NCBI GenBank assembly: GCA_937949615.1
Contig: CALEDQ010000008.1
Location: 827,556 to 891,555, forward strand
Direction: 5' to 3'
DNA from: an uncultured bacterium
Lineage (GTDB): Bacteria > Muiribacteriota > Ozemobacteria > Ozemobacterales > Ozemobacteraceae
DNA: 64,000 bases
Shown: piece by piece, positions 15,517-33,086 of the stretch
How the letters are laid out: every line of letters begins with the position of its first letter
How positions within the stretch are numbered: position 1 is the stretch's first letter
Translations under genes and position numbers: made by a program
Notes under the pieces: model-generated
The model's database searches: none
Told to the model about the DNA's origin: nothing
The model's input: the letters and a program-made list of their open reading frames with translations, nothing else

Positions 15517-18321
15517 TCAGTTCCCCTGTGGGGCCTGAAAAATCACGTTCCCTGAAGGAGTAACCGATGTTGCCTCACCGGTGCCTGCGCCTGTTTCACC
15601 GCCCGGAGCAGTAAGTGGCTGCTGCAAAGGCATCTGGGGAGCGGGAGTCGGCATTTCCGCAGGCTGGCGATTATTCTTTCTGATCATTTCTTCGGCCCAT
15701 TGCCTGGTTTCGGTAGCGGTAAGTGCTGAGCCAGCGATTCTCGAAAGCATCGGCACAGCTTCGCCAGCTTTACCATTCTGAAGCAGTGACCTGCTCATAT
15801 TTACCTCGGCTTCGGTAATTGAAGCAACAAGCGAAATGGCGTGGCTTCTGATTTCCGGGGGGGCGGCCGGTGAGGCGGCAGCAGTTTCTAGGTGCTGACG
15901 TGCCCGGCCAAGCTGCTGCGAACGCACCAGAATCACGCCCAGGTCGCGATGGAACACGGGGTTGTCAGGATTCAGGTCGAGAGCTTTCAGCATCGCTTCC
16001 TCGGCCCGCTGCTGCAGACCGATGTTCGAGGCAGAAATGCCGACGATGTTCAGCATCGTCGGGTCGCGGTCCTGAACGAGTGCTGAGACAGAAGCCGCGT
16101 AGTTGTAGGCTTCTTCCCATTTCTGAGTGCCGGCTTTAGCGACTGCTAGCGAAGCTTTCGCCTGCAGTTCGAAAGACGGAAAGGCGAGAGCTTTTGTCAG
16201 GTATTTTTCGGCCTGAGCCAGCAGTTCGGTCTTTCTTTCTTCTGGAATAGCGTATCTGGTAATATCGAGAGCGATCTTGCCGGCATACATGTAATAAATC
16301 GAACGCGCCTCACCGGCGGTGAGTTCGAGACCGTGTATCGCTTCCTGGTAGGCTTCGACAAGTTTGTTCATCAGGTGATAGTAGATGTGCATTTTGCGGA
16401 AAACCACCGAATGATAGGTCGATCTGGCGTTGAAATTGATATTCTGCATCGATCTGTCGGCGTAAACCATGGCCCGTTGCGGATCCTGTTCCTGGGCGTA
16501 AATTGCTGAAAGTTTCAGGTAGGGATCACCAGGAAGCGGGTCGAGGACGATAGCATCGGTTAAAAGAGCTTTAGCCCGGTTGACCGCTTCTGCCTGGGTA
16601 TATTTCATATACATGTCAGCTTCGCGCACCATCTCATCGGCCTTCCAGCAGCGCATCTCATGAACGGTGTTGGTTATGCCGCCAAGCAGCGCAACCCCGG
16701 CGAATGCCAGAGCAACAGTCTGATCGATATTGATTTTACGACGCACGAGCGGCGAATTGAAAAAGTCGGTTTCGGTAAGCACCGGCACCAGACCGAGAAA
16801 GAGAACAGCGTAAACCGCAGTTTCAATACGATGGAACGGGAAATCCGGAATGGCGGCGAGCATCTGCGACACCATCGCGGCACCGAGCCCGATCAGCAGA
16901 ATATGTTCGCCACGCATTTCCCCGTCGGGGCGGCTGAAGATTTCGCGACGCAGAGCCAGTTGAATGCTGGCAAAAAAGCGATAAACGACAAACAGAAACA
17001 GCAGCATACCCACGACGCCCATCTCGGAAATAAGCTGCAGCCAGTCATTGTGCGCCTGACGGAAAGTGACCGCGGTAAAAGTCTCTTTGTTGTCTTCAGA
17101 GAAGGTTTTGCCTTCCTGCAGCGGGAAAAAGTGCTTGAAAGCCCCGAAACCACGCCCGAAAAGCGTATCGAAAACCGAGCCATCGAAGGCCTTGATAGTG
17201 CCATACCAGACCCACATGCGCTCATAGGTGTTGCTGGCAAGGCGATCGAGGGTAAAGGTGTATTTGATTTTGTCGAGAATGCTCTCAGACTGAATCGTCT
17301 TGACCGACAACGCAAAAAGACCGGCGAAAATCAGAACCACTGCGGTCAGGAAAAAGGGTGCATTCTTGCGCATCAGCTTCTGCTTGCGGTCGTTGAGAAA
17401 AAGCATGATGGCCATGTAGACAATACCACAGGCAATACCGATGAGGGCCGCGCGGCAACGGGTGATGTAAAGGCCGTAAAGAAGCCAGCCATACAGCCCG
17501 AGCGATATGACCTTCATTACCGTGCTGCGATAGTAAAAGAAGAAGGCCAGAGGCAGAAAGGCCGTGAACATCGCGAATGTGCCGAGATAGTTGCGGTTTC
17601 CGAAGGTCGAAACGACCGAACCCATGTCGTAGTTCCGGTTGGCAAGTTGAGGAAACAAAGGCAGATAGTAGCCATTCGGGTCGACCTGACCGTTGAGCAC
17701 TTCCTCTTTTACGTATCGGATGAGGCTCTGGGCATCGAACTTAAAATAGAAATTGTAGGTTTCCATGATACCGATCGTCGAGGTGGCGATGCCGGTAAAA
17801 ATGACGGCCCAGAGAATAAGTTCGACCTGCCAGCGACTGCGAACCACATTTGCCACCAGCGGGAAAAGCAGGATTATGCTAAAAACCCCGCGCAAATCGC
17901 GAATCGCCGACGGCACGTTGTAATTCCACATCACCGACAGGGCTGCAAAGCCGAAGAACAGCGTCAGCGGAAAATCGATACTGGTGCGAGCCAGAGCCGG
18001 CGTTCGCCGGGTAAACAGGCGGGCGCAGTAGATGCCGGCAAGAATGGCGATCGCGATTTTCGAGAAGAACTCTTTCGGAGTCAGAAAGTTTTCGGTCGTG
18101 GCACGGCTGTAGAGAAACGGCATCACCAGAACAACGAGAAGAATGCCAATATAGACAATCCAGTCAGTAACCGAGAGTTCGGCACGGGTCTCATTGTTGT
18201 TCTTGCGGAACAACCGGTAAAAAAAGTCTTCAAAAGCCTGCAGCCCCGATGGCTGACTGCCGACTACGCCTTCAGGCTTGTCGCTGCCGGCTGCCAAAGT
18301 TCTGACCCGTTTTTTTGCCAT
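15517..18321 (-). CDS. O-antigen ligase/PglL-family (Wzy_C) polytopic membrane protein fused to C-terminal TPR repeats
   Basis: The N-terminal ~560 aa have at least 10 TM segments. They carry the conserved ligase motifs R..AALIG, FGRGFGAF and QAHNDWLQLISEMGVVG (the H-N-x-x-L catalytic-region signature). The C-terminal ~350 aa contain multiple TPR-like repeats. The tail is Pro-rich (PAEMPTPAPQMPLQQPLTAPGGETGAG). Confidence 0.8.
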   Translation of the reverse strand: MAKKRVRTLAAGSDKPEGVVGSQPSGLQAFEDFFYRLFRKNNNETRAELSVTDWIVYIGILLVVLVMPFLYSRATTENFLTPKEFFSKIAIAILAGIYCARLFTRRTPALARTSIDFPLTLFFGFAALSVMWNYNVPSAIRDLRGVFSIILLFPLVANVVRSRWQVELILWAVIFTGIATSTIGIMETYNFYFKFDAQSLIRYVKEEVLNGQVDPNGYYLPLFPQLANRNYDMGSVVSTFGNRNYLGTFAMFTAFLPLAFFFYYRSTVMKVISLGLYGWLLYGLYITRCRAALIGIACGIVYMAIMLFLNDRKQKLMRKNAPFFLTAVVLIFAGLFALSVKTIQSESILDKIKYTFTLDRLASNTYERMWVWYGTIKAFDGSVFDTLFGRGFGAFKHFFPLQEGKTFSEDNKETFTAVTFRQAHNDWLQLISEMGVVGMLLFLFVVYRFFASIQLALRREIFSRPDGEMRGEHILLIGLGAAMVSQMLAAIPDFPFHRIETAVYAVLFLGLVPVLTETDFFNSPLVRRKINIDQTVALAFAGVALLGGITNTVHEMRCWKADEMVREADMYMKYTQAEAVNRAKALLTDAIVLDPLPGDPYLKLSAIYAQEQDPQRAMVYADRSMQNINFNARSTYHSVVFRKMHIYYHLMNKLVEAYQEAIHGLELTAGEARSIYYMYAGKIALDITRYAIPEERKTELLAQAEKYLTKALAFPSFELQAKASLAVAKAGTQKWEEAYNYAASVSALVQDRDPTMLNIVGISASNIGLQQRAEEAMLKALDLNPDNPVFHRDLGVILVRSQQLGRARQHLETAAASPAAPPEIRSHAISLVASITEAEVNMSRSLLQNGKAGEAVPMLSRIAGSALTATETRQWAEEMIRKNNRQPAEMPTPAPQMPLQQPLTAPGGETGAGTGEATSVTPSGNVIFQAPQGN

Positions 18322-18323
18322 GA

Positions 18324-19082
18324 TTAATTAGCCTTGATAACAACCGGATCAGCCGGATATTCGCCGGTCGAGCCGTTGGCCTTGCGGTCAGAATAATCTT
18401 TTATGCGGCTGTTGCCTGGAGAGACTCTGACAGTTGAAGATCCCGGATAAAATGCGGTGTCGCTTGCGAGATTGTTGAATTCAAGAAGAATTTCAGCAGC
18501 AGAAGCGGGAAAACTTGCCGGGCTGGCAAAAATACTGACTGCCACGTCTGAAGAAAACAAAAGATCACCGGCAGAGGGCGAAGCATTATCGTAAACAAGA
18601 GCGGTGTCAGACGCCGGAATAAAGCGTGAGAATTCAAGACGGAGCAGATCTTTCTGGCTTATCATACGGTTATTGTCGATGTCGACCCAGGTAGCGCGCT
18701 GCAGCGTCAACGGCGGTTTGTAATCAACGACGATATCATCGCGCTCGACACTGTTATCCGGGCCATTTGACTTAACCTGGCCCTTCAGCCAGTCGACTTC
18801 GTAATCGCGACCCCATGGGTCACGGGGCAGGTCCTGCAGGTAATGCCCGAGCAGTACGCGCAGGTCGGTTCCCTGGAATGGCCGTTCGGCCATTGTGTCA
18901 TGCTTAACCAGAGCCTCTTTGATGATATCAAGTTCGTGTTTGGCCTTGGCAAGACGCGACTGCCTTACATAATCCTGATAATAAGGCAGGGCAACGCCAA
19001 TCAGTATGGCGATGATGGTAACGACGATCAACAGTTCAATCAAAGAAAATGCTCGTTTATTCATGGTTGAAAATACTACCAT
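18324..19082 (-). CDS. Extended GspG-like pseudopilin (prepilin-type N-terminal cleavage/methylation domain), 252 aa
   Basis: The class-III leader plus hydrophobic helix is MNKRAFSLIELLIVVTIIAILIGVALPYYQDY. GspG core motifs DPWG and GPDNS are present. The shared linker is YKPPLTLQRATWVDIDNN...LRLEFSRF, followed by a variable C-terminal ~90 aa. The gene ends 2 nt from the start of the 934-aa ligase gene. Confidence 0.8.
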   Translation of the reverse strand: MVVFSTMNKRAFSLIELLIVVTIIAILIGVALPYYQDYVRQSRLAKAKHELDIIKEALVKHDTMAERPFQGTDLRVLLGHYLQDLPRDPWGRDYEVDWLKGQVKSNGPDNSVERDDIVVDYKPPLTLQRATWVDIDNNRMISQKDLLRLEFSRFIPASDTALVYDNASPSAGDLLFSSDVAVSIFASPASFPASAAEILLEFNNLASDTAFYPGSSTVRVSPGNSRIKDYSDRKANGSTGEYPADPVVIKAN

Positions 19083-19172: not shown

Positions 19173-21140
19173 TCATTTCTCAGTCTGGTTCAGATTGATG
19201 CGGTTGGCGGCGATACCCATACCAAGAAGGCCCCAGAAAACCGGGGCAATGCCGACAATGCTGTCATTGAAAATTGCAGCGACCAGATACGCCACTATCG
19301 CAGCCATTATTCCAAGGCCTGCGATTTCAGATAAACTTTCAAATCGGCATTTCCAGTATATTTTTGCCGACTCCCGCAGATAAACCGCAAACAGTGCCAG
19401 AATCGCAAACAGCGAAATCATACCGGAGTTGATGGCAATCTGAAGATAAAGATTATGCGGCTTTTCGATCATGGTAAAGATACCACTCGGCCAGACCCGC
19501 AGTTTTCCAAGATAATCGTGATTGGGGAAATGGAAAGCGAAAGTATCAGGGCCATAGCCGACCAGCAAAGTCTTTTTGAGCATGGGCAGCGTTCGCGACC
19601 AGATATACCCGCGATTGCTGGCCAGGCCCTGACAACCGGCAAAACCAAATGCTTCGACTTCCTGAACATCGACCGGTTTACCAAACTGATTGATCAGCTT
19701 GAAGCCCCTATCAGTGTTCACCACATAAAAACTGACGCCGCCACGCCCGATTTCGAAAACATTGTATTCAGGCCAGGCATAGATAAGAAAGCCACGCATC
19801 TTTTTTTCAGGAAAAATCAGCAGATACTCTTTTGAAGTGAAGAAACCACGGCCGGTTCCTGAGGCAGTTTCGCTTCCGGTTGTCGTTACAGCGACAGGTG
19901 TTACCGCCTGATTTCCGGGCAGCGACTGGAAAATGCTCGTCGAGCTGCTCGCCAGTGCGGTAAAAGAAGCGAGCGGCGATTTATTGTCAGTTCTCAGATG
20001 CGGGTTAGGTAAAAGACTGTAGTTAACCAACTCCCCTTTGTGATCGTAGAACTCGACCTGCTCATTGTTCAGTCTGACTTCAGTTTTCAGGTCGTCGAAA
20101 ACGAACGAGAATGAATCGGTGGCCAGCTTGAGATCCTGAAAATTGCCAAAAAGATTGTTTCTGACCTCTACGGGTCTGGCGATAGAAGTTTCAAGAAATC
20201 TAGGCACTTCTTTTTCTTTCCAGGTAAAGGCATCCATGGCGAACGGCATCAGGGAGAAGCACAATAGAAGCAGAGCCAGCCGCCGCTTGCGCGCCCAGAC
20301 TTCGCGCCAGACGAAAGGAAGCAAGATTAAAGCTGCAATTACAGCACCGAGAAAACCGGCCCTCGATTTGGAGCCGAGCAGATTGCAGAAAATCAGCAGA
20401 TTGATCGGTATCAGGGCAAATTTCAGGCGGTTGTTAACGAGCAAAGCCAGCGCGAAAGTCAGGGCGAAAAGCATGGCCATGTAGCTGCCGGTGAAGTTGC
20501 CGTTGCCAAAGGTCAGAAAAATCGAATGCATACTGCCTTTCAGCTGGCTGAGATTGATGCCGGGCTGCAGCTGCCGCACTTTTTCAGGCACGATAAGCCA
20601 GTCAGCCATTTCAGAATACAAAAAATTGGCACCCAGAAACTGGGCAACGCCGGCAATCGCAAGAATTGTGGCTGAGACCAGCAGCATGCCCAGCAGAATT
20701 TTAAGCTCCCGCCGCGTTTCGGTCAGGTTGATAAAGAGAAAAATGATGCTCATGTAGCTGAGATGCACGAGCATTCCCTCGTGTCGGTGCGGATCGCCGA
20801 AGAACGCAATCTGCCAGTGGTCGGCAAAAATCGTCGAGACAATGATGAAAAAGCTGTATACAGCAAGAGGCCGATGATACCAATTTGCGGTTGTTACACG
20901 GTTACATCGATACCACGCCAGCGCTGTCGCCGCCAGAATACAGGTCCATACCGATTTATAGAAAGAAAACAGATCGCCCTGAATCGAAGGCCCATAAGTC
21001 TCAGCAGCGGCGCCTTCAAAGGTCACCAGCCGCATATAAACTATCATAGGCAGCAACCCGATGATCGCACCCATCAGCAGTAGCGGCAATGCCGAAACCG
21101 GTCTTGTCGGAACAGACTTTTCTTCTAAAGATTCGCTCAC
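19173..21140 (-). CDS. O-antigen ligase/PglL-like membrane protein with a ~200-aa periplasmic insert (655 aa)
   Basis: Polytopic. It carries GNGNFTG, SRAGFLGAVIAAL and GYGPDTF....EKPHNLYLQIAINSGMIS (GxGxxxF...H-N-x-Y-L-Q). It is a paralog of the 21232-23271 product. The start codon is GTG. Confidence 0.75.
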   Translation of the reverse strand: MSESLEEKSVPTRPVSALPLLLMGAIIGLLPMIVYMRLVTFEGAAAETYGPSIQGDLFSFYKSVWTCILAATALAWYRCNRVTTANWYHRPLAVYSFFIIVSTIFADHWQIAFFGDPHRHEGMLVHLSYMSIIFLFINLTETRRELKILLGMLLVSATILAIAGVAQFLGANFLYSEMADWLIVPEKVRQLQPGINLSQLKGSMHSIFLTFGNGNFTGSYMAMLFALTFALALLVNNRLKFALIPINLLIFCNLLGSKSRAGFLGAVIAALILLPFVWREVWARKRRLALLLLCFSLMPFAMDAFTWKEKEVPRFLETSIARPVEVRNNLFGNFQDLKLATDSFSFVFDDLKTEVRLNNEQVEFYDHKGELVNYSLLPNPHLRTDNKSPLASFTALASSSTSIFQSLPGNQAVTPVAVTTTGSETASGTGRGFFTSKEYLLIFPEKKMRGFLIYAWPEYNVFEIGRGGVSFYVVNTDRGFKLINQFGKPVDVQEVEAFGFAGCQGLASNRGYIWSRTLPMLKKTLLVGYGPDTFAFHFPNHDYLGKLRVWPSGIFTMIEKPHNLYLQIAINSGMISLFAILALFAVYLRESAKIYWKCRFESLSEIAGLGIMAAIVAYLVAAIFNDSIVGIAPVFWGLLGMGIAANRINLNQTEK

Positions 21141-21231: not shown

Positions 21232-23271
21232 CTATTGCACAACCGGCGGAGTAAGAGGTTCAGCCTTGTTTCTGGTCAGGTTTTCCATAACCATACGGTT
21301 TGTGGCAAGCCCCAACCCGAGCAAACCCCAGAAAACCGGAGCGGTTCCCACCATACTGTCATTGAAAAAACCATTAACCAGATAACTGAAAATTGCCACA
21401 AAAATTGCAGCACCAGAAACACTAAGATAATCATTCAAATCGATTCTAAAATATAGATAGGCCGAATTGAATAAATACCTTACCCAGAAAATCAATATTG
21501 CTATCAGCGCAATAATCCCATTGTTAAAAGCAATCTGCAGATAAAGACTGTGGGGCTTTTCGATCAGAAGGTTCATCCCCTGAATCCAGTGTCTAAGCTT
21601 GCCAAGATGATCATAATTCGGGAAATGGGCAATGAAGGTATCCGGACCATAACCCAGCAAAACAGCGTGCTTCAGCAAAGGCAATGTTCGAGACCAGATA
21701 TAGCCACGGCCACTTCCAAAACCCTCCATTCCCTTGAATCCCCATGATTCAACTTCTCTTATTACAGCCGGCTTCCCTCTATGATTCAACAATTTAAAAC
21801 CATTTTCACCATAAGACAGAAAAAAAGTCACGCCGCCCCGACCGATTCTTAGAATATTTCTGTGCGGCCAGATATTGATAATAAAACCGCGCAATCTGTT
21901 TTCAAGAAATTCTACCAGCTGTGGATGACCAAGAAAAAGCTCTTCGGAAGATATCACAGGAGCAGAAAAAGTAGCATTACCTGTTTTATTGGCAGATTCT
22001 TTATACTCTTCATGCTCTTCACCAAGTAGAAGCTTGGTTTCGTCAAGCATCATAAAGACAGGTTTTCCCAAAGAACTGCCTGAAGCTGATTGAGCAGCAA
22101 GAGAAGCGCTTGAAGTGGCAGACCCACGTTTTAACAGTTTAAAAGCTACAGGCGCTCCAGTCGAATCAAAAAACTCAAGCTCTCCGGCATCAGATTTGAT
22201 CTTTAATTTTACCTGGTCAAATATTACTTCCGCAGAATTTCCATTTAAAATCAAGTCTTTAAAGACTCCATAGCTCCCCAGCGAATAAATCAGAGGCCTG
22301 CCAAAAGAAGAAGAAAAAAATCGTGTCTGTCCATTTCGCAAAGAATGTGCATCCATAACGAATGGAATCAAAGAGAAACAGGCGATTATGATTAAAAGCG
22401 ATCCAATCTGATTTTTAAGTCTTTTCCGAAAAAGAAGAATACAAAAAACACCACCGAGCATACCCGCCAAAATCGCTGATCTGGCGACACAACCGAGCAT
22501 GACGATGTAAAGGACAAGGCAGAGTGCTGCAACACAAAACTTTTTCCAGCCTCGCAAGTTAAGAAAAAACGAAAACGCAAGCGGGAACAGCATCGATACA
22601 TAAATACCCGTATAATTACTGTTGCCAAAAGTGGCAAAAATCGTTTCTGTCGATTTTTGAATTTTTTCAAGTGCGTAAGCCGGCATTATTTCTTTAATAC
22701 GGCCTGGAATCAGTATCGACGTCCCAAGCTCTGAGAAAAAATAATCAAACCCAAAAAATTGCGAGGTTCCAACAATTGCAATTATTAAAGCCGATGCCAG
22801 CAAAGATTTCATTAAGAAATTAGATGTGGAAACATTTCGAACAATGTTAAGAAAAAGAAGCAGAATGGCCATGTAACACAAATTGACAATAAGCCCCTCG
22901 TGGCGCTCCGGGTCTCCCCACAAGGCCAGGCGCCAATGAACAGCAAACACCGTAGACAGTATCGCTGCGGTGGAATAAACAACCAGCAGGCGCGAGTAGA
23001 CGAAATTACCGCCTCGATGAAAAAGAAACCATAAAACAGAAGCTCCTGAAAGGAGAATTATCCAAACCATCTTGTACCAGGTAAAAAAATCAGTATTGAA
23101 ATCTTTGGCAAATATTTCCCTGGAAATCCCCTCGTAAGGAACAATACGAAGATATACAATCAACGGAACAAGGCTGATTATAGCAGCTAAAAGAGCCTTA
23201 ATTAAAAAAGTAGGCTCAGCTTCTCCCTGCGAAGAATCATCGCGCAAATTGGCATTTTCAAAATTTTGCAT
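21232..23271 (-). CDS. O-antigen ligase/PglL-like membrane protein with a periplasmic insert (679 aa)
   Basis: HWRLALWGDPERHEGLIVNL, GNSNYTG and GYGPDTFIAHF...EKPHSLYLQIAFNNGIIAL match the paralog at 19173-21140 and the ligase motif. The start lies 10 nt after the stop of the upstream pseudopilin gene. Confidence 0.75.
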   Translation of the reverse strand: MQNFENANLRDDSSQGEAEPTFLIKALLAAIISLVPLIVYLRIVPYEGISREIFAKDFNTDFFTWYKMVWIILLSGASVLWFLFHRGGNFVYSRLLVVYSTAAILSTVFAVHWRLALWGDPERHEGLIVNLCYMAILLLFLNIVRNVSTSNFLMKSLLASALIIAIVGTSQFFGFDYFFSELGTSILIPGRIKEIMPAYALEKIQKSTETIFATFGNSNYTGIYVSMLFPLAFSFFLNLRGWKKFCVAALCLVLYIVMLGCVARSAILAGMLGGVFCILLFRKRLKNQIGSLLIIIACFSLIPFVMDAHSLRNGQTRFFSSSFGRPLIYSLGSYGVFKDLILNGNSAEVIFDQVKLKIKSDAGELEFFDSTGAPVAFKLLKRGSATSSASLAAQSASGSSLGKPVFMMLDETKLLLGEEHEEYKESANKTGNATFSAPVISSEELFLGHPQLVEFLENRLRGFIINIWPHRNILRIGRGGVTFFLSYGENGFKLLNHRGKPAVIREVESWGFKGMEGFGSGRGYIWSRTLPLLKHAVLLGYGPDTFIAHFPNYDHLGKLRHWIQGMNLLIEKPHSLYLQIAFNNGIIALIAILIFWVRYLFNSAYLYFRIDLNDYLSVSGAAIFVAIFSYLVNGFFNDSMVGTAPVFWGLLGLGLATNRMVMENLTRNKAEPLTPPVVQ

Positions 23272-24784: not shown

Positions 24785-25004
24785 GTACATGCCCTCCTGT
24801 AAATTATGATCTTATCAGATCTGAATCACCCAACAGACTTTTGCAGTGGGTTTTGCCGCCCACCTACGGCGTCTTCACCAGTCATTCAGTTTTGGCAGCT
24901 GCAGCGACACAACACACCTCACTGCCCGGCACCTCCTGGTCTTCGAGATTCCGTTTTTCTGAAATCATTCAGATACTTCGTAAAACCAACCTGTCTAAGT
25001 TGTA

Positions 25005-25021
25005 AGCAAAAGCTGTACCAA
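25005..25021 (-). promoter_or_regulatory. Sigma-54-type promoter candidate (TGGTAC-N5-TTGCT) upstream of the 24047-24784 gene
   Basis: The minus strand reads TTGGTACAGCTTTTGCT. The GG (-24) and GC (-12) elements are separated by exactly 10 nt as in the TGGCAC-N5-TTGCW consensus. It lies 8 nt after the upstream gene stop and ~220 nt upstream of the ATG. Confidence 0.4.
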
Positions 25022-25799: not shown

Positions 25800-26546
25800 T
25801 TATTGTGGCAGAATGTAAACTTTCTGACTGCTCAAACAATAATTTTTCGGAGCTGCAACGTCAAAAATCTCGCCATGACTGTCGGTCACGATCAAATAAT
25901 CCTGGCCAACGGTAAAAACAGGGTTAGCGGCCACTTTGTATACAAGCACTTTGCTTGCACCGACAACTGTCGGCCCATAGGGGGTCACACCAACCACCAT
26001 CGGGCTCACGCCCGAGGACAATTTGGTAGCAGAGTTCAAGTAGATATGATCACCAAAATTTGTTATGGTAACAGCGCCCAGTTTGCGACTGAAGGTAAGA
26101 TGGAGCTCGTCGCTGACGTTCTGCGTGTCAACCGCACCCGACTGGTTTTTATCGACCCATTTGGCACTTACCAGGGCAAGCGGCGGCTGGTAAGGAACAT
26201 TGATATTATCGTAATTATTGGAATCACTGCCATCCAGGCGGTCAGGGCCTTTGGAATAAACAATGCCGTTGCTCGAGGAAACAATGTATTCTGAACCCCA
26301 CGGATCGATGGGCGATTTGTTCAGGTAACGACCAGTAAGATCTGAAACGGTAGTCTTGGTGTATTCGCCTTCACGAGTCTCGTAGATGGCGAGAGCACGG
26401 GCAATCTCTTCGAGGTCAGTTTTGGCCTTGGCAAGACGCGACTCGGCAACGTAGTTCTGCACGTAAGGCAGAGCAGCGCCGGCGAGAATTGCCAGAATGG
26501 TAATGACCACCAGCAGTTCAATAAGTGTGAAACCTCTTCTCAACAT
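25800..26546 (-). CDS. Extended GspG-like pseudopilin, 248 aa (tandem paralog)
   Basis: MLRRGFTLIELLVVITILAILAGAALPYVQNYVAESRLAKAKTDLEE, then DPWG and KGPDRLDG. The linker is identical to the 25029 paralog over YQPPLALVSAKWVDKNQSGAVDTQNVSDELHL. An AAGGAG Shine-Dalgarno is present. Confidence 0.85.
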   Translation of the reverse strand: MLRRGFTLIELLVVITILAILAGAALPYVQNYVAESRLAKAKTDLEEIARALAIYETREGEYTKTTVSDLTGRYLNKSPIDPWGSEYIVSSSNGIVYSKGPDRLDGSDSNNYDNINVPYQPPLALVSAKWVDKNQSGAVDTQNVSDELHLTFSRKLGAVTITNFGDHIYLNSATKLSSGVSPMVVGVTPYGPTVVGASKVLVYKVAANPVFTVGQDYLIVTDSHGEIFDVAAPKNYCLSSQKVYILPQ

Positions 26547-26573
26547 AAAAATGAAATCTCCTTTAGAGAATTG

Positions 26574-27311
26574 TTACCTGGATGACGTTATCGTCACGTT
26601 TTGACTGGTAATGCAATAATTGGCTGTACCCGGCGCCCGGTCACGAATGCCGGAGCCGTCATAAACCCACAGAGAGTCGCTGCCAGGGCCAAAAACGTTT
26701 TCGAGGCCATTATCAACGGCGACCGTCATGACATTACCAGATGAATCAAGCTTCAGAGAGCTCCAGTCCATGGCGGTGGTTATGCTGGGCGCGGTCCAGC
26801 GGAAATACTTGTGCGCCTCATCAGGCGAAACCAACGCCGGGCTGGTGGCCACAATCTTTCTTGAAAACATCAGCTGCAGATAATCACTGACATTCTGGGT
26901 ATCTACCGCCCCGGAATTATTGGCATCGACCCACTTTACAGAGACAAGAGCCAGCGGCGGCTGATAGCTCACGGTGATATCGTCGAGATTATTGTCAATA
27001 CGGTCCGGACCACTCGAAAAGACAACGCCGGCGCCGGTTGCGACCACATAAGACTTACCCCACGGGTCGATAGGCGATGAATTAAGGTAGCGGCCGGTCA
27101 ACAGCCGCAAAGTCGAGTCATTGTAAGTACCCTCTCTGGTTTCATAAACCGCCAGGGCTCTCTTGATCTCTTCAAGATCAGATTTTGCTTTCGCAATGCG
27201 GCTCTCAGCCACATAATTCTGCACATAGGGAAGCGCTGCTCCCACCAGAATGGCGAGAATCGTAATTACCACCAGCAGTTCGATCAGCGTAAAACCAGAT
27301 CTTTTAAGCAA
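26574..27311 (-). CDS. Extended GspG-like pseudopilin, 245 aa (tandem paralog; TTG start)
   Basis: The TTG start is preceded by GGAGGG at 4-nt spacing. The product is LKRSGFTLIELLVVITILAILVGAALPYVQNYVAESRIAKAKSDLEE with DPWG and SGPDRIDN. The linker is YQPPLALVSVKWVDANNSGAVDTQNVSDYLQLMFSRK. The C-terminal tip is divergent. Confidence 0.8.
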   Translation of the reverse strand: MLKRSGFTLIELLVVITILAILVGAALPYVQNYVAESRIAKAKSDLEEIKRALAVYETREGTYNDSTLRLLTGRYLNSSPIDPWGKSYVVATGAGVVFSSGPDRIDNNLDDITVSYQPPLALVSVKWVDANNSGAVDTQNVSDYLQLMFSRKIVATSPALVSPDEAHKYFRWTAPSITTAMDWSSLKLDSSGNVMTVAVDNGLENVFGPGSDSLWVYDGSGIRDRAPGTANYCITSQNVTITSSR

Positions 27312-27440: not shown

Positions 27441-27456
27441 CGCAAGCAATGTACCT
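27441..27456 (-). promoter_or_regulatory. Sigma-54-type promoter candidate (aGGTAC-N5-TTGCg) upstream of the tandem pseudopilin genes
   Basis: The minus strand reads AGGTACATTGCTTGCG, with GG/GC spacing as in the consensus. It lies ~130 nt upstream of the TTG start at 27311 and shares the GGTACA core with the 25005-25021 candidate. Confidence 0.4.
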
Positions 27457-27687: not shown

Positions 27688-28446
27688 TCATTTTTTACGT
27701 TTTTCAATCACCAGGTTATCAACCCGGCCAAGGCGCTGGGGTTTGGGCGAATAGTCAACAATAGATTCAATATATTCACGTGGGAACAACCTGGTTTGCC
27801 CCGGAACCAAAGTCGGCGCAATCGGTGGCGCAAAATCGATTCTTGCCTTGAAATAGTTGTCACCAGGCCTTACAACTGCTGAACCCAGGGCCTTTTTCGG
27901 CAAATCGGTTTCAAAATCGATACCCAGCGGATCTTTCAACTGTGCCGGCCGCGAAAAAGTCAGCTCGATATAATCACTGATATCAACCAGATTGTTCAGA
28001 TTAACATCGACATACTCAGCCCTGGTAACAAAAAAGTTCTGTGGCAGGTAATAAACGGCGATATCATCACTCTCTGAAGCGACATTAGTCGTCTGAGGTC
28101 TTCCATCAGGGCCGCAGGAAAAAACTACACCCTGCTTTACGTCATGCAGGTAATATACTCCCCAGGGGTCACGCGGTGGTTCCTTTTCAAGATATGTTCC
28201 GATAAAGGTTCCGAGAGCCTGCGGCGAAAAAACCTCTGTCTCAAACTGTCTTGATTCCTTGATGTTATAGAGACGCACCGCCTTAACCAGCTCATCGATA
28301 TCGGCGCGGGCGCGGGTAATTCGGGTGCTGGCAATATGGCGACGGTATTCCTCAAGTGCGAAAATCAGCAGGGCAGAAATGATCAGCAGGGTTACCAGCA
28401 ACTCTATCAGAGCGAAACCCTTGGCAAACCTGCGGTTCATTGGCAC
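27688..28446 (-). CDS. Extended GspG-like pseudopilin, 252 aa
   Basis: MPMNRRFAKGFALIELLVTLLIISALLIFALEEYRRH, then PRDPWG and CGPDGRPQ. The linker is YYLPQNFFVTRAEYVDVNLNNLVDISDYIELTFSRPA. The C-terminal tip is variable. Confidence 0.8.
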   Translation of the reverse strand: MPMNRRFAKGFALIELLVTLLIISALLIFALEEYRRHIASTRITRARADIDELVKAVRLYNIKESRQFETEVFSPQALGTFIGTYLEKEPPRDPWGVYYLHDVKQGVVFSCGPDGRPQTTNVASESDDIAVYYLPQNFFVTRAEYVDVNLNNLVDISDYIELTFSRPAQLKDPLGIDFETDLPKKALGSAVVRPGDNYFKARIDFAPPIAPTLVPGQTRLFPREYIESIVDYSPKPQRLGRVDNLVIEKRKK

Positions 28447-28582: not shown

Positions 28583-30466
28583 TCAGTCAAGACCAACGGT
28601 TACAGAATCCTGCGATGGAACTTCTTCGTCGAGATAATCGACGTTGACCAGTCTCGGAGTGACCAGCATGATCATTTCAGAATTGTTGGTCTTGTTGTTA
28701 TTATGAGTCAAAAGTGTCTTCAGCAGAGGAACTTTATTGAGAAGCGACGGCGAGTTTTTCTGCTCAGAGCCCTGATGATTGATAAGACCGCCAAGCACTA
28801 CCGTTTCGCCGTTCTTGATGCGGACATAGGTCTGGGTATTTCTTTCTGAGCGATGGATCTGACCGTCTTCGTTGATATTGAGAACTGAGTCAACGGTGGT
28901 GTTGAGCTCCATGCTGATTTCGTTGTCACGAGTGATCTCGGGAGTAACTTCGAGTCTGATACCAACTTGAACGTCGCGGTATTCTTTATACACCTGGGGA
29001 GTATATCCCAGGTAACTGTTACTGGCGTTTTCATATCTGAAATACGGCACCGGAATCACTTCGCCGATATTGATCGAGGCTTTTTTACCATGCACAGCCC
29101 TGATCTTCGGGCTGGCAAGCACCTTCGCCTTGCTTTCCTGTTCAAGGAAATCGAGAGTGGCAGGCAGAGCGTAATTGCTGGGCAGACGACCGATATCGCC
29201 GACGTTGATCTTGTAGCCATCGAGCTTGATACCAAGCTGACGCAGGCTGGTGCGGTTGATTTCGACCAGTTTAACTTCGATAACCGCCTGTTTAACTTTC
29301 TCATCGACGCTTTCGATGATTTTTTCAATCAGGTTGAGGTTTTCGACCGTGTCATATACAGAGAGAGTATTGATTCTTTCGTTCAGCGAGAAGTTACCGG
29401 TGTCGATCTTTTCAGCGAGCGACTTGCTGCTGCTGATCATTTTAACGACTTCTTCAGGCTTGGCATTGATCAGTTTGAACGTGCGATACTGCTTCTTGCC
29501 AAATTCACTGGCGCTGTCCTTGGCCAGAATGACGAAGGTATTGTCGTTGTGAGGCTTCTTCACCAGTCCGTTGGTTTCGATCAGCAGATCGAGAAGCTCA
29601 TCGAGATTGAGGTTTTCGACATAAAAATTAACCTGTTTGTCTTCAACGCTTTCATGAATGATGAGGTTGATGTTCATCATTTTCGACAGAGTCTGCAGCG
29701 CGTCCTTAAGACTCAGATCGCGGAAAAGGAGCTCACGTGCCATTCTGCTGCTGTCAGTGCCGAGCGAAATAACCGTCAGATCGCGCCCCTTGAGGGTATA
29801 CTGAAAGTTTCTCTGCAGAAGCAGGTTTTTGAGGATTTCGCGCAAAGTCACATCCTGTGCATTAACGCTGAATTTCCCCTTAACGCCTGAATCGGCAAAA
29901 ATTCTCAGGTTGAATTTGACCGCCAGGGCGTTAAGAATAGTCATAAGATCTTCCTGATCGAAGCTCAAACTGACTCTCGCATCGAGCACGCTTGCTGAAC
30001 TTCCTGAAAAAGCGGCCATTTCAGCGGCGTTTCCGGCAGCAACCTTTGCAAGCGGTGAAGTTTCTAGAACCAGGTTTCGGTCGACCCTCCTTGGACTGAC
30101 CTTAAGTGGTTCATTAAAGACGATAATCGCCCTGACAACGTCGGGGCGTGTGCTTACCTGACTGATACGCATAAATTTCACCAGCGAATGTGGAGCGGGG
30201 ATAATAGTGCTGGCAGCGGCGAATTCCCAGTCATAAAAATCGGCGCGGACAACTTCCGGAGCTTCCATGGTTACGTTGAATTCCTTTACTTCATGTGCAG
30301 GAAACAGCACCATGCCATTGGCCCCATATCCGGCAATTTTCAGCTCGGTCAGCTTTTCAGCTGCTCCTGCCGGCATACTTATAATAACCGCCAGCAGAAA
30401 AACCAGAGCCAGCCGCACATTACAGCACGTGTGCCGCAGGTCTCTGCAGTTTTTTAGAAACTTCAT
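28583..30466 (-). CDS. Secretin (PilQ/GspD family) with N-terminal AMIN/STN-like domains
   Basis: Start set at the ATG with an AAGGAG Shine-Dalgarno (MKFLKNCRDL..., signal peptide). The central region has N0/N1-like domains. The C-terminal secretin domain includes ETVVLGGLINHQ...KVPLLKTLL...MIMLVTPRLV. Confidence 0.85.
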   Translation of the reverse strand: MKFLKNCRDLRHTCCNVRLALVFLLAVIISMPAGAAEKLTELKIAGYGANGMVLFPAHEVKEFNVTMEAPEVVRADFYDWEFAAASTIIPAPHSLVKFMRISQVSTRPDVVRAIIVFNEPLKVSPRRVDRNLVLETSPLAKVAAGNAAEMAAFSGSSASVLDARVSLSFDQEDLMTILNALAVKFNLRIFADSGVKGKFSVNAQDVTLREILKNLLLQRNFQYTLKGRDLTVISLGTDSSRMARELLFRDLSLKDALQTLSKMMNINLIIHESVEDKQVNFYVENLNLDELLDLLIETNGLVKKPHNDNTFVILAKDSASEFGKKQYRTFKLINAKPEEVVKMISSSKSLAEKIDTGNFSLNERINTLSVYDTVENLNLIEKIIESVDEKVKQAVIEVKLVEINRTSLRQLGIKLDGYKINVGDIGRLPSNYALPATLDFLEQESKAKVLASPKIRAVHGKKASINIGEVIPVPYFRYENASNSYLGYTPQVYKEYRDVQVGIRLEVTPEITRDNEISMELNTTVDSVLNINEDGQIHRSERNTQTYVRIKNGETVVLGGLINHQGSEQKNSPSLLNKVPLLKTLLTHNNNKTNNSEMIMLVTPRLVNVDYLDEEVPSQDSVTVGLD

Positions 30467-30567
30467 AAGCCGCTCCTTAATCAAATGATCAATTGCAAAA
30501 AAATTAATATCCCCGTTACATCATTCGACATCTGCAAAACAAAACTTTATAGCAAATTAAAAATTTG

Positions 30568-30603: not shown

Positions 30604-30616
30604 ACGGAAGCTGAAT

Positions 30617-31777
30617 TTACATGGCCGGCTGAGTTGCGCCTGTTGAACCGCCCGAAACGACACGGGCCATACGAAAAATCGGCAGATACATCGCCAGTAC
30701 GATAACACCGACAATAGCACCAATAACAACAATGAAAGCCGGCTCAACCAGTGCCGTGATCTGATCGATCAAGAAATTGATTTCGTCTTCGTAAAATTCA
30801 GCAACCTTCTCCAACATTTCATCGAGATTACCAGATTCTTCACCGACCTCGATCATCTGAGTCGACAGCTCAGGCATGATCTCGACCTTGGCCAGAGCCC
30901 TCGATATCGGAATACCACCCTCAACTTCTTTAACAACGTCGTCGAGAGATTCCTGGATAATCATATTTTCAACGGCTTCATTACTGATCTTCATCGCAGA
31001 AATAATATTGATGCCCGACTCGAAAAGCGTCGCCAGGTTTCTGGCATAAAGAGCAATGATGTATTTCTGCAACAGACCTCCGAAAACAGGCAACTTCAGC
31101 TTGACCCAGTCGAAAAAGTGACGCCCGGAACGGGTCTGATCGATCTGAAAAAGAATGATAAAAAAAGCCAGGCCGGCAGCAAAAAGCAGCAGAAGATTGT
31201 TTCCGATAAAACCTGAAAAATTGATCACCTGCTGGGTCAGCCAGGGCAGTTCTTGATTGAACTGGGTAAACAGATTGGCAAACTGCGGAATGACGAACAG
31301 CATCAGGAACATGACGACCAGAGCTGCCACCGCAGAAATGATCAACGGATAGGTCATCGCCCCGATAACGCGGCGACGAATAGATATCTGCCGTTCCATA
31401 AGCTTGGTCAGGCGGTCGAGGACCATGACCAGTCGACCAGACTCTTCGCCAACCTTTATCAGATTCGAATAGAGCATGCCGAAAATATCATCGTGCTTTT
31501 TAAAACACATATGCAGAGGCATGCCGCCTTCTACTTCGGTCTTGGAATCCCAAATGATTTTTCTGAAGCGCCAGGTCTTCATCTGACGCGAAAGGGTGCC
31601 CAGTGACCGCAAAACCGAAATACCGGCACGGGAAAGGGTAGTGAAATATTTAGTGAACAACAGGCGCTCACTCAGCCCGATATTACCGTAAAACGGGTTC
31701 AGATATGACAGAACCGGCCGGTTCTCTTCTCCTGGACCCTCTTGCCTGACATCTTCATTAGTGTTTAAATCTACCAT
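30617..31777 (-). CDS. gspF: Type II secretion / type IV pilus platform protein GspF/PilC family
   Basis: 386 aa with the typical duplicated GspF cytoplasmic domains (LLFTKYFTTLSRAGISVLRSLGTLS ... LYARNLATLFESGINIISAMKI) and three TM segments. Confidence 0.85.
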   Translation of the reverse strand: MVDLNTNEDVRQEGPGEENRPVLSYLNPFYGNIGLSERLLFTKYFTTLSRAGISVLRSLGTLSRQMKTWRFRKIIWDSKTEVEGGMPLHMCFKKHDDIFGMLYSNLIKVGEESGRLVMVLDRLTKLMERQISIRRRVIGAMTYPLIISAVAALVVMFLMLFVIPQFANLFTQFNQELPWLTQQVINFSGFIGNNLLLLFAAGLAFFIILFQIDQTRSGRHFFDWVKLKLPVFGGLLQKYIIALYARNLATLFESGINIISAMKISNEAVENMIIQESLDDVVKEVEGGIPISRALAKVEIMPELSTQMIEVGEESGNLDEMLEKVAEFYEDEINFLIDQITALVEPAFIVVIGAIVGVIVLAMYLPIFRMARVVSGGSTGATQPAM

Positions 31778-31810
31778 CTTTGCCGCTCCATGATTATTTT
31801 CTGATTTATT

Positions 31811-32233
31811 TTACCACGGCATCTCAGTACCATTTAATTTTATTCTGACATCGCGAATCTGTTTTCCGGCAGGAACAAGTTCCTGATCTGCCCAGAGATA
31901 AACCCGTTCATAAAAGCTAACCGTATCAAGACTTGAATTGTATTCAAGACGCAGCTTTGCATCTCCGGCAAGAGGTGTGATGAGAACCGATTCGACAGAT
32001 TGCTGCAGATACGGCCCCTCAAGCAATTTCAGACTGGTCGGGTATGCCATGTTATCTTTAAAATATCGGGAAATTGCATCGCGAACAATCTTCAGATTGG
32101 TTCTCGCAGTGTTTTCCCGGGCTTCCGGCAGAATGTCGGCATAATAGTTATAGCCGACCCCGGCGAGGACGGCTATTATTGCAACCACGATCAGCATTTC
32201 CATGAGGGTGAAGCCCCCACGCTGTCTATTCAT
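31811..32233 (-). CDS. gspG: Type II secretion major pseudopilin GspG (canonical size, 140 aa)
   Basis: MNRQRGGFTLMEMLIVVAIIAVLAGVGYNYYADILPEARENTARTNLKIVRDAISRY. The prepilin leader has G at -1 and E at +5. Its start overlaps the stop of the upstream Wza-like gene by 8 nt. Confidence 0.85.
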   Translation of the reverse strand: MNRQRGGFTLMEMLIVVAIIAVLAGVGYNYYADILPEARENTARTNLKIVRDAISRYFKDNMAYPTSLKLLEGPYLQQSVESVLITPLAGDAKLRLEYNSSLDTVSFYERVYLWADQELVPAGKQIRDVRIKLNGTEMPW

Positions 32234-33086
32234 CTCTAACCATCATCACTGTCTGTTCGGCCGGGCCCTTGAAGTCAACTACCTGACGGTGCTGACGATA
32301 GCCCTTGCGCTTCAGAGTAATTTCTCCAAATTCTTTTTTGATCAGGCTGATCTTGAAAGACCCCTGTCGGTTGGTTGAAACCTTCGCATCGTCGAGCAGA
32401 ACTTCAACATTCGGAAGCGGCTGGCGGGTAAAGGCATCTACAACAGTGATTGTAACAGAGTCTGCGAGTTTGATTGGCTTCAGGTAGATTTTCGACGGGT
32501 TCCCGGCCTTGAGCATCTCTTCTAACTGACCAGCAGCAGTTGAGAAACCATCAGCAATGATGACCACATAACCGGAACTCTCGTCAAGCAGAATCTGACC
32601 AAGACGGTTCGACTGATAGATCTTGTTACCGAGCATCATGGCGACATCTGCAATACCGTTTCTGGAACCAGCATCGACGATTTCAACAAGAACCTGTCGG
32701 TCTGCAGCCGGAGCTGAAGCGGCGTTGTCGGCACCTGCCGGAGAAACCGGTGCAGTGTCACTCTTGGCGACTGCTTTTGCCGAACCTTTGCCTTTAAGAG
32801 TTACCTGAACCAGAGGGTCTTTTAGATAGCCATCTTCAAGCATCTGCGAGATCAGACGGGCTGCGTCGGTAGTTTTCATACCAGTGACACCAACAGAACC
32901 GATCAAGGGCATAATGATGCTTCCGTCTCTGCCTACCTGTCTCTCTACCGACAGTTCTGGTTCACCTTTGACCCAGATACTGATGGTATCACCGGCCCCA
33001 AGCAAAGCGGGCGCGGCCGCATTAACCAGGCCAGACGCGCTTACCAGGCCGATGAAAATAAAGATTAACCACTTAATTTTGTTCAT
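32226..33086 (-). CDS. Periplasmic polysaccharide export protein (Wza/OPX-like Poly_export domain) with a C-terminal carboxypeptidase-regulatory-like beta domain
   Basis: A signal peptide precedes a Poly_export signature GDTISIWVKGEPELSVERQVGRDGSIIMPLIGSVGVTGMKTTDAARLISQMLEDGYLKDPLVQV. An Ala-rich linker follows. The C-terminal VEVLLDDAKVSTNRQGSFKISL...GYRQHRQVV resembles a CarboxypepD_reg-like domain. There is no C-terminal amphipathic helix. Confidence 0.7.
   Translation of the reverse strand: MNKIKWLIFIFIGLVSASGLVNAAAPALLGAGDTISIWVKGEPELSVERQVGRDGSIIMPLIGSVGVTGMKTTDAARLISQMLEDGYLKDPLVQVTLKGKGSAKAVAKSDTAPVSPAGADNAASAPAADRQVLVEIVDAGSRNGIADVAMMLGNKIYQSNRLGQILLDESSGYVVIIADGFSTAAGQLEEMLKAGNPSKIYLKPIKLADSVTITVVDAFTRQPLPNVEVLLDDAKVSTNRQGSFKISLIKKEFGEITLKRKGYRQHRQVVDFKGPAEQTVMMVRDE

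Follow-up and report, generated by a model that had tools for sequence, protein, structure and literature searches.

The 64-kb stretch of DNA analyzed here (hereinafter, the window: 64,000 nucleotides of contig CALEDQ010000008.1 from an uncultured bacterium of the family Ozemobacteraceae) contains, at positions 15517-33086, 14 back-to-back open reading frames (ORFs) on the minus strand which, in the reading that we favor with moderate confidence, make up a Riflebacteria-specific type IV filament locus that carries a strain-variable island for pilin O-glycosylation. The predicted products combine class III pilins, a platform protein and a secretin, the set by which members of the type IV filament superfamily are recognized, and include three proteins with a Wzy_C domain. 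ORFs of at least 150 amino acids (aa) from the window were scanned with Pfam, and the proteins of the locus were also run against NCBIfam; the resulting ORF map and family assignments agree with the genes and boundaries given in a preliminary description of this DNA that was made from the sequence alone. A search of the literature on Riflebacteria and Ozemobacter, with the original Ozemobacter and Rifleibacterium genome papers lying outside its range, found no account of this locus. Its components, in the order of transcription, are as follows.

32226..33086, minus strand: OPX-like protein, 286 aa; Sec signal, Pfam Poly_export (2e-19) and CarboxypepD_reg
31811..32233, minus strand: short pilin, 140 aa; Pfam N_methyl only, class III signal GGFTLMEM
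30617..31777, minus strand: inner-membrane platform of the GspF/PilC type, 386 aa; Pfam T2SSF (5e-57)
28583..30484, minus strand: secretin, 633 aa; Pfam Secretin (2e-35), STN (N0) and Secretin_N (N1-type)
27688..28446, minus strand: pil1, bimodular pilin, 252 aa; N_methyl and T2SSG
27442..27455, minus strand: sigma-54-type -24/-12 element GGTAC-N5-TTGC before pil2; motif and conservation in orthologs
26574..27311, minus strand: pil2, bimodular pilin; N_methyl and T2SSG
25800..26546, minus strand: pil3, bimodular pilin; N_methyl and T2SSG
25029..25775, minus strand: pil4, bimodular pilin; N_methyl and T2SSG
25006..25019, minus strand: sigma-54-type -24/-12 element GGTAC-N5-TTGC before pil5; motif and conservation at pil5-position genes
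24047..24790, minus strand: pil5, monocistronic bimodular pilin, 247 aa; N_methyl and T2SSG
24017..24039, minus strand: intrinsic terminator 3' of pil5; perfect 10-bp stem with 8 G-C pairs, then a T-run
23282..23995, minus strand: pil6, bimodular pilin, 237 aa, Ala at -1; N_methyl and T2SSG
21232..23271, minus strand: WzyA, insert-type WaaL-fold enzyme, 679 aa; Pfam Wzy_C (1e-8)
19173..21140, minus strand: WzyB, insert-type WaaL-fold enzyme, 655 aa; Pfam Wzy_C (4e-11)
18324..19082, minus strand: pil7, bimodular pilin, 252 aa, Ala at -1; N_methyl only
15517..18321, minus strand: WzyTPR, 934 aa; Pfam Wzy_C (2e-12), then TPR

Bimodular pilins and the other putative filament components

The seven paralogs pil1 to pil7 (237-252 aa) can be aligned over their full length and share the leader (G/A)F(T/S/A)L(I/L)ELL, the DPWG and D-x-I motifs of the pilin module, a (P/A)(P/Q) linker (P-P-L-A) and an F(S/T)R strand. 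Identity among the paralogs is 34-79% in the N-terminal module, 25-95% in the linker and the first immunoglobulin (Ig) strands, and 14-35% in the tip, except that the tips of pil3 and pil4 are 65% identical; at the nucleotide level, a 143-nt 5' end is repeated in six of the seven genes. The most divergent paralog is pil1, which shows 29-31% identity to the others and is always encoded directly 3' of the secretin gene. The class III prepilin signal (N_methyl), with Gly or Ala at position -1, Glu5 and a hydrophobic alpha-1N, is present in all eight pilins of the locus, including the short one.

In the AlphaFold (AF2) model of an extended pilin, a pilin head (residues 1-118) with a long N-terminal helix (residues 8-58) is followed by a separately folded beta-sandwich (residues 125-247). 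The pilin module is structurally closest to the major pseudopilins of type II secretion systems (T2SS), EpsG (4lw9) and PulG (5wda), and an extended pilin scores 61 bits against the GspG equivalog model TIGR01710, below the cut-off of 89. The Ig module of the pilins has no Pfam match of its own. A profile of the tip only, searched against 1.84 billion representative proteins, retrieved 116 proteins, about half of which are pilin fusions of 230-320 aa and the others giant surface proteins in which the tip domain is repeated up to 16 times, some of these with Pfam Big_5 and one with a type IX secretion system (T9SS) sorting domain. Because the tip recurs as repeats in giant proteins that are not pilins, the extended paralogs are best described, on the strength of the model and the sequence comparison, as bimodular proteins in which a GspG-type pilin module is joined to a predicted S-layer-type, Big_5-like Ig module. 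The view of these proteins as modular, extended pseudopilins with shared motifs and a variable tip, put forward in the preliminary description, is borne out both by the alignment, with its gradient of identity, and by the model, in which the C-terminal part forms a domain of its own.

Modular pilins are widespread, although most descriptions concern minor subunits located at the tip (PMC8179133). Streptococcus sanguinis PilB (vWA) and PilC (lectin) and CofB of enterotoxigenic Escherichia coli (ETEC) show the same succession of a pilin module, a short linker and a separately folded module (PMC8179133), but these are single minor tip pilins, whereas in this locus all subunits of the array are modular, the probable major one (see below) among them. 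Compared to the T2SS GspG proteins, exemplified by EpsG and PulG, the pilins of this locus have an additional Ig module of ~125 aa and come as 6-9 tandem paralogs; the locus further differs from T2SS in that it lacks the GspC/E/L/M/H-K set and has putative sigma-54 promoters and hypervariable outer parts.

The 140-aa short pilin had been labeled a canonical GspG, a designation that does not hold: the protein has no T2SSG match, the match to the GspG model is limited to residues 7-69 (39 bits, cut-off 89), and it is the extended paralogs that are GspG-like. Orthologs of the short pilin are conserved at 35-92% identity across Riflebacteria loci. The platform protein scores 310 bits against GspF (cut-off 424) and 308 bits against PilC, both under the NCBIfam equivalog cut-offs; its orthologs are confined to Riflebacteria (60-93% identity), and the next relatives, at 35-42%, are of the PilC type. 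The secretin, with 184 bits for PilQ (TIGR02515) versus 127 bits for GspD (TIGR02517, cut-off 351), is by these scores closer to PilQ than to GspD.

The OPX-like protein consists of a D1/PES (Poly_export) domain (residues 24-97), an Ala/Ser/Pro linker and one or more CarboxypepD_reg-like beta domains. There is no lipobox or Cys in the signal peptide, and D2-D4 were not detected among the domain-level matches to Pfam and NCBIfam. Of the Wza-like exporter that had been proposed, the Poly_export D1 domain is thus present, and the lipoprotein signal, D2/D3 and the D4 outer-membrane helix were not detected; lacking every feature that spans the outer membrane, the protein offers little to the accompanying hypothesis of Wza-type co-export. 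The gene is the first one of the conserved locus, with an ortholog in all Riflebacteria loci that extend this far, and it is retained even in loci without any Wzy_C gene; because it is kept where Wzy_C is absent, it seems to belong to the pilus core and not to a glycan pathway. The protein probably docks under the secretin, where it may form a periplasmic ring. It resembles the short OPX proteins of the Myxococcus xanthus EpsY type in having D1/PES without the outer-membrane D4 helix and in being encoded next to the gene for a large outer-membrane channel (bioRxiv 10.1101/2022.04.04.486985). It differs from them in that it is not a lipoprotein, that CarboxypepD_reg-like domains replace D2, that the partner is a secretin and not an 18-stranded beta-barrel, and that the export context of polysaccharide co-polymerase (PCP), flippase and polymerase (Wzx/Wzy) is missing.

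Two further observations concern this protein. Its residues ~100-130 form an Ala/Ser/Pro-rich linker (...SDTAPVSPAGADNAASAPAADR); low-complexity stretches of this type are targets of general PglL-type O-glycosylation in Neisseria (PMC3643930), and by analogy the linker could itself be a glycosylation substrate. In another Ozemobacteraceae genome (L083, positions 1-4732, GCA_049305675.1), the gene for an 889-aa secretin adjoins that for a large CarboxypepD_reg-repeat protein, within a second filament locus that does contain an ATPase. The arrangement recalls the CarboxypepD_reg part of the OPX-like protein beside the secretin of the window, and CarboxypepD_reg proteins may be secretin partners in Riflebacteria.

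Conserved gene order, predicted expression units and the hypervariable centre

To survey the locus, one genome per GTDB species was scanned, and the proteins of the window were mapped onto ~35 Riflebacteria loci. Full-length matches to the extended pilins were found only in Riflebacteria metagenome-assembled genomes (MAGs), with proteins from other phyla matching the N-terminal 60-110 residues only; the homologs are labeled Candidatus Riflebacteria, Ozemobacteraceae and Rifleibacterium amylolyticum. Several public MAGs with a locus of the Riflebacteria type (L010, L013, L019 and L033) are labeled Candidatus Methylomirabilis, Candidatus Avigastranaerophilus or Erysipelotrichia, probably because contigs were mis-binned or the taxonomic label is wrong. 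The gene order is fixed: MutS2, RpoN, the OPX-like protein, the short pilin, the platform, the secretin, pil1 and pil2 are followed by pil3/4 (2 or 3 copies), pil5, pil6, insert-type Wzy_C, pil7, Wzy_C-TPR and an SBP/ABC transporter. In the window, rpoN (33331-34785) adjoins the locus and a Wzz gene (2998-4221) is located ~11 kb away from it, in accordance with the preliminary description. Fully spanned loci contain 6-9 extended pilins, and the number of insert-type Wzy_C copies is 0, 1, 2 or 3 (the last of these in L085); in Rifleibacterium, there is no Wzy_C gene in the locus. The insert-type genes of Riflebacteria are always embedded within pilin arrays, and the pil7/Wzy_C-TPR pair was found in 14 other loci. 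Apparent variation among strains in protein length (245/247, 633/655 and 239/252 aa) turned out to reflect the choice of start codons by gene callers, loci L001-L006 being identical to the window. Exact matches to the window among metagenome contigs include the 475-kb ERZ724079 NODE_4.

Comparison with two close relatives, L009 and L023, reveals collinear flanks, one running from rpoN to pil2 and the other from pil7 to the ABC transporter, with ~85% identity at the DNA level and 91-98% between the flank proteins. The centre is different. Against L009, window positions ~26076-21200 cannot be aligned, save for an 87.6%-identical island over the pil5 promoter and 5' end; against L023, positions 26080-19113 are poorly alignable, with only N-module and paralogous matches (~66-73%). 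Both insert-type Wzy_C genes are missing in L023, WzyA cannot be aligned in L009, and the pilins of the variable centre are only 43-65% identical to those of the close relatives. The GC content is 0.43-0.48 across the pilin/Wzy_C array (20001-32000) compared to 0.50-0.55 in the flanks, with the minimum, 0.426, over pil6 and WzyA. The identity of pil6 to its counterpart in the window does not separate loci with insert-type Wzy_C from those without. Conserved 5' ends combined with swapped 3' modules and accessory genes are the typical behavior of pilin/tfp alleles and O-antigen loci. Because the centre is hypervariable in the same manner, the Ig tips are likely to be exposed to selection from outside, and we infer that the tips, pil5, pil6 and the insert-type Wzy_C genes comprise a low-GC cassette that is exchanged between close strains and that the tips are surface-exposed.

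The two long intergenic gaps of the array, before pil2 and before pil5, each hold a coding-strand GGTAC-N5-TTGC element. A general sigma-54 consensus with 2 mismatches shows no enrichment in the window (42 matches vs 38 expected). Only the specific GG(C/T)AC-N5-TTGC form, combined with its conservation across loci, is meaningful; there are 4 matches to the specific element in the window compared to 0.96 expected. In the other Riflebacteria loci, 39 of the 50 matches to GG(C/T)A(C/T)-N5-TTGC sit just 5' of genes in the pil2 or pil5 position, the element upstream of the pil2 ortholog is present in about 20 loci, and at least 13 loci repeat the succession of a sigma-54 site, a single pilin gene and a terminator. 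Classically, it is the gene of a highly expressed major pilin that stands alone between a sigma-54 promoter and a terminator, as pilA does in Pseudomonas aeruginosa and Myxococcus. Because pil5 is monocistronic, with a sigma-54 site and a terminator in this classical layout, it is by analogy the likely major subunit, and pil2 to pil4 are predicted to form a single sigma-54 transcription unit that would supply a co-regulated second set of pilins. No sigma-54 activator is encoded in the window.

The preliminary description also reported that an ATPase, GspC/L/M, a prepilin peptidase and a glycosyltransferase are missing, and the Pfam scan leads to the same conclusion: none of the genuine ORFs of at least 150 aa in the window matches T2SSE, Peptidase_A24, GspC/L/M or a glycosyltransferase. 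PilB/PilT, PilD and PilMNOP were found neither in the locus nor in the rest of the window, and GspC/L/M/E and GspH-K neither in the locus nor within 10 kb of it in the ~35 loci. The Walker A/Asp-box motif of GspE was detected in no frame of the window and in no ORF of ~40 Riflebacteria loci examined with 10 kb on either side; with no GspE/PilB motif within this distance, the absence of the ATPase is a conserved feature of the locus. An unconventional, ATPase-less machine, which had been entertained as one explanation, is nevertheless not what the rest of the phylum suggests, given that T2SSE ATPases, PilM/N/O, PilT and further secretins are encoded there at other loci. In the Ozemobacteraceae locus L083, the 889-aa secretin is accompanied by an MshEN-bearing T2SSE ATPase of 582 aa, by PilM and a pilin, by three small genes, and by a T2SSF paralog that shares 35% identity with the platform protein of the window; L084 (Riflebacteria RBG_13_59_9) encodes PilB, PilT, PilC and two pilins; and L047 encodes PilM, PilN, PilO and a 463-aa secretin in a MAG that also includes fragments of the locus described here (L016 and L042). 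Because the phylum possesses these other, ATPase-bearing type IV filament loci, supply of the missing parts in trans is the economical reading. With type IVa pili, the locus shares the PilC-like platform, the PilQ-like secretin, the apparent sigma-54 promoters of pilin genes and the terminator after the presumed major pilin; it differs from them in lacking the ATPase, the peptidase and PilMNOP, in the GspG type of its pilins, and in having the OPX-like protein in the position expected of an alignment or adaptor protein.

WaaL-fold enzymes and the proposed O-glycosylation of pilins

In each of the three Wzy_C proteins, the domain is detected above the gathering score, and the H-(N/S)-x-(Y/W)-L-Q motif is found at residue 424 of WzyTPR (HNDWLQ), residue 562 of WzyB and residue 574 of WzyA (HSLYLQ). 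WzyA is 38% identical to WzyB. An AF2 model of WzyB (pLDDT 83, pTM 0.83) produced a single meaningful match in a Foldseek search of PDB structures, namely WaaL 7tpg (prob 1.00, TM 0.54); sequence searches of PDB with WzyTPR, WzyB and a WzyA/B profile yielded no significant match for the membrane domains, with WaaL 7tpg at E 0.48. Four residues of WzyB (R260, R510, R516 and H562) are invariant or nearly so among 22 homologs and are the candidate catalytic residues. The Arg...Arg...His series is kept in all three proteins of the window, and its spacing resembles that in E. coli WaaL (R215/R288/H338) and Neisseria meningitidis PglL (R224/R298/H349) (PMC3643930). The insert of ~200 aa in WzyA and WzyB is located in the large catalytic periplasmic loop, ahead of the R-G-Y-I-W motif, and in the AlphaFold model of WzyB comprises a disordered Ser/Thr/Ala-rich stretch in addition to two small beta-sheet subdomains. 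WzyTPR, with orthologs that are 48-94% identical, combines the WaaL-family membrane domain with an extra transmembrane helix and a ~380-aa TPR tail that matches MamA and PilF. The Pfam matches and motif positions thus confirm that the array includes three ligase-family proteins with the H motif, two of them with inserts and one fused to TPR, and neither the fold, which is that of WaaL in WzyB, nor the catalytic His, which all three possess, is missing.

It is the genomic context that leads us to think it somewhat more likely than not, on the sequence evidence, that the three Wzy_C enzymes work like pilin O-oligosaccharyltransferases (O-OTases), although they are not filed under PglL, TfpO, TfpM or PglS. 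All four known O-OTase families carry Wzy_C and the His, and most are encoded directly after a pilin gene (PMC9829042, PMC3643930), as is the case for 21 of 31 PglL homologs (PMC3643930); a C-terminal TPR is found in the O-OTases WsfB and PglL (PMC2943079); and location outside lipopolysaccharide (LPS) loci and beside pilins is a published criterion for an O-OTase (PMC3643930). Here, the genes are all on the same strand, with spacers of 10 nt between pil6 and WzyA and of 2 nt between pil7 and WzyTPR. A same-strand Wzy_C enzyme directly 3' of a type IV pilin is also the arrangement in pilA-tfpO (P. aeruginosa, Acinetobacter), comP-pglS (Acinetobacter baylyi), pilin-tfpM (Moraxellaceae) and PglL beside pilins, and further features in common with the known pilin O-OTase islands are the presence that varies among strains and a glycan donor made elsewhere (PMC9829042, PMC3643930). 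Unlike these islands, the locus described here has enzymes with a ~200-aa loop insert (two) or a ~380-aa TPR tail (one) and without PglL_A, there are up to three enzymes per locus, and the acceptors would be bimodular GspG-Ig pilins.

The pil7 orthologs (L007, L009, L019, L020, L023 and others) almost always have Ala, not Gly, at -1 and retain the Ser-rich loops N-A-S-P-x-A-G and A-S-x-P/T-A-S-S along with a K-A-N-G-S/T motif near the C-terminus. The loops can be compared with the glycosylation site of the Neisseria pilin, N-T-S(glycan)-A-G (PMC3643930).

Relatives of the insert-type enzymes in other settings provide additional context. In L085 (Logan SRR34294817_3388, 332-11803), three insert-type Wzy_C genes lie in tandem behind pil5-like and pil6-like genes and precede genes for a hexapeptide acetyltransferase, UDP-GlcNAc 2-epimerase, a GFO/IDH/MocA oxidoreductase and a Polysacc_synt_3 (Wzx-type) flippase; in L086, an insert-type Wzy_C gene adjoins that of a Bac_transf initiating transferase. 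The nearest homolog outside the phylum, a 609-aa protein of Clostridium sp. JN-1 (L082, CP033465.1, 1-21830; 34% identity over 98%), heads a cluster that encompasses Wzz, an NTP transferase, GT4/GT2, a WsaF-like glycosyltransferase, a pyruvyl transferase and a separate plain Wzy_C protein; a CW_binding_2/Big_5 wall protein is encoded at a distance of 10 kb. This cluster resembles S-layer glycosylation loci in which a Wzy_C O-OTase modifies Ig-domain S-layer proteins, and by analogy the insert-bearing subfamily may be a glycan transferase for S-layer or wall proteins in monoderms. Geobacillus and Paenibacillus O-glycosylate their S-layer proteins (WsaB/WsfB, with SgsE/SpaA as acceptors and Ig domains of the SbsC type); the system proposed here would differ from theirs in that the acceptor Ig domain is part of a pilin and the organism is a diderm.

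Several points weigh against a glycosylated filament. WaaL, Wzy and O-OTases are indistinguishable by sequence (PMC3643930), so that context has to decide the function of the Wzy_C proteins. PglL_A (PF15864) and Wzy_C_2 are unmatched in all three at E <= 0.01, the enzymes are 655-934 aa long compared to 420-600 aa in the known O-OTase classes, and WzyA weakly matches the repeat-unit polymerase model TIGR04370 (2e-5, under the cut-off). TfpO and TfpM are enzymes of 420-470 aa whose cognate pilin is encoded immediately upstream and ends in Ser/Thr (PMC9829042); upstream pilins are indeed present here (pil6-WzyA and pil7-WzyTPR), but the sizes of the enzymes (679 and 934 aa) do not fit and neither do the C-terminal residues of the pilins, which are L, N, Q, K or R. 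With no pilin ending in Ser/Thr, the TfpO/TfpM mode is excluded. The tail of WzyTPR is predicted to be periplasmic by a crude hydropathy-based count of transmembrane segments, which is a weak basis. No glycosyltransferase or flippase is encoded in the 64-kb window. The Rifleibacterium loci, which lack Wzy_C, indicate that glycosylation would be inessential to the machine and, together with the variation of insert-type Wzy_C from 0 to 3 copies per locus, speak against the "dedicated" glycosylation apparatus that had been suggested. More generally, both the filament and the glycosylation of its pilins are predictions from sequence, the in-trans supply of the ATPase is deduced from other Riflebacteria genomes, the organism of the window being covered over 64 kb only, and the pilin module has the pseudopilin-like character that is considered below.

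Some of these points would be accounted for if the Wzy_C proteins were unrelated to the pilins, acting as ligases or polymerases of O-antigen, exopolysaccharide or S-layer glycans in a recombination-prone region beside an unglycosylated pilus. We consider this unlikely. It would accommodate the copy number of 0-3 and the lack of these genes in Rifleibacterium, the weak polymerase-model match of WzyA, the inseparability of WaaL and O-OTases by sequence (PMC3643930), and the occurrence of homologs from outside the phylum in polysaccharide clusters, where their neighbors are Wzz, glycosyltransferases or Bac_transf; in the window itself, a Wzz gene is found 11 kb off. The gene arrangement argues otherwise: the enzymes are encoded on the same strand as the pilins, with spacers of 2-10 nt to the preceding pilin gene; the pairing of pil7 with WzyTPR is kept in 14 loci at 48-94% identity; the insert-type genes are always between pilin genes in Riflebacteria; and location beside pilins, outside LPS loci, is the published O-OTase criterion (PMC3643930). 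Furthermore, the Clostridium cluster has its own plain Wzy_C protein as the polymerase candidate.

Alternative machines, proposed mechanism and neighboring genes

Less likely still is a T2SS-like device, in which a short periplasmic pseudopilus would push folded exoproteins through the secretin and the Ig modules would touch the cargo, candidates for which are the 1494-aa PKD protein encoded in the window and similarly large surface proteins. The pilin module is of the major-pseudopilin type, nearest to EpsG and PulG, with 61 bits against TIGR01710 and the DPWG and D-x-I motifs, which at the same time counts against the filament; the homologs are annotated as "general secretion pathway protein G", and the T2SSF and Secretin families are both represented. 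Nevertheless, O-OTase-like genes as neighbors are known for pili and not for T2SS (PMC3643930), GspC/L/M/E/H-K were found neither in the locus nor within 10 kb in ~35 loci, and the secretin scores higher with PilQ than with GspD. The sigma-54 promoter and terminator around a single pilin gene, too, form the classic layout of a major pilin, and the hypervariability of the Ig tips suggests exposure to the outside, whereas periplasmic pseudopilins are conserved. Highly improbable, finally, is a hybrid exporter, a composite translocon of the OPX-like protein and the secretin for a Wzy-polymerized polysaccharide, with or instead of a filament: by Pfam, the locus lacks a flippase, a PCP, a glycosyltransferase and an initiating transferase, the OPX-like protein is a non-lipoprotein with D1 only that is conserved where Wzy_C is absent, and secretins are not known to export polysaccharide, against which can be set the conserved position of the Poly_export D1 protein as the first gene of a locus that also encodes the secretin, the Wzy_C genes in the locus with Wzz nearby, and the pairing of short OPX proteins without an outer-membrane domain with separate outer-membrane proteins (bioRxiv 10.1101/2022.04.04.486985).

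Under the favored reading, a type IV filament with strain-variable O-glycosylation, the system would operate as follows. Sigma-54 and an activator would switch on pil2-4 and pil5. The prepilins would enter the inner membrane, and a peptidase encoded outside the locus would cleave them after the Gly or Ala at -1. Either before the filament assembles or while it does so, the WaaL-fold enzymes would move Und-PP-glycans, made elsewhere, to Ser/Thr residues in the Ig modules of their cognate pilins, with the N-A-S-P-x-A-G and A-S-x-P-A-S-S loops of pil7 as candidate sites and the TPR tail or the loop insert as the possible acceptor-recognition part. The platform, with an ATPase borrowed from another filament locus, would then polymerize the pilins so that their GspG-type modules form a helical core and their Ig modules face outward, and the fibre would exit via the PilQ-like secretin, with the OPX-like protein as a possible adaptor ring beneath. 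Tips and glycans would differ among strains through exchange of the central cassette.

Pilin genes beside Wzy_C O-OTases, modular pilins, sigma-54 promoters of pilin genes and split type IV filament loci are already known. What appears to be new is that 6-9 GspG-Ig pilins encoded in tandem would make up the body of a filament, and that such arrays are confined to a single candidate phylum; that WaaL-fold enzymes with a loop insert or a TPR fusion are embedded in a hypervariable pilin cassette; and that a pilus locus has an OPX-D1 protein among its core genes. That these features add up to a new class of filament, an Ig-coated fibre built from several co-expressed paralogs, glycosylated by new insert-type and TPR-type O-OTase classes that are swapped together with pilin alleles, and with an OPX-like ring as the adaptor of the secretin, is a tentative proposal that we do not regard as likely in its entirety. 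If correct, it would extend type IV filaments to fibres with bimodular major subunits and would add two architectures, insert-bearing and TPR-fused, to the small set of bacterial protein O-oligosaccharyltransferases, enzymes that serve as tools for bioconjugate vaccines; it would also suggest that S-layer and pilin glycosylation have a related enzyme fold and acceptor domain in common. No new principle would be involved, the combination of pilins with Wzy_C and trans-encoded ATPases both being familiar. In a phylum known for the large number of its unknown genes (PMC10849945), the locus would then stand for a concrete conserved surface structure and, being a hypervariable surface locus, could be useful for strain typing and for questions of phage-host interaction.

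Rfam and tRNA scans of the window gave no match. On the minus strand, at 2998-11402, the gene for the Wzz/GNVR regulator is followed by those for a 373-aa protein with weak biotin_lipoyl/RnfC_N similarity, a 604-aa protein of the PF13941 "MutL protein" family (actin-like ATPase family, E 4e-119), a 470-aa DUF6754 protein (E 6e-121) and three ORFs without a Pfam match; this looks like an operon beside a polysaccharide co-polymerase. An Eco57I/TaqI-type DNA methyltransferase is encoded at 1156-2937 (minus strand) and a 773-aa protein made up entirely of HEAT repeats at 57692-60013 (minus strand), and the 1494-aa protein encoded on the plus strand at 47787-52271 is predicted to be secreted and contains PKD, Big_7 and CarboxypepD_reg domains.

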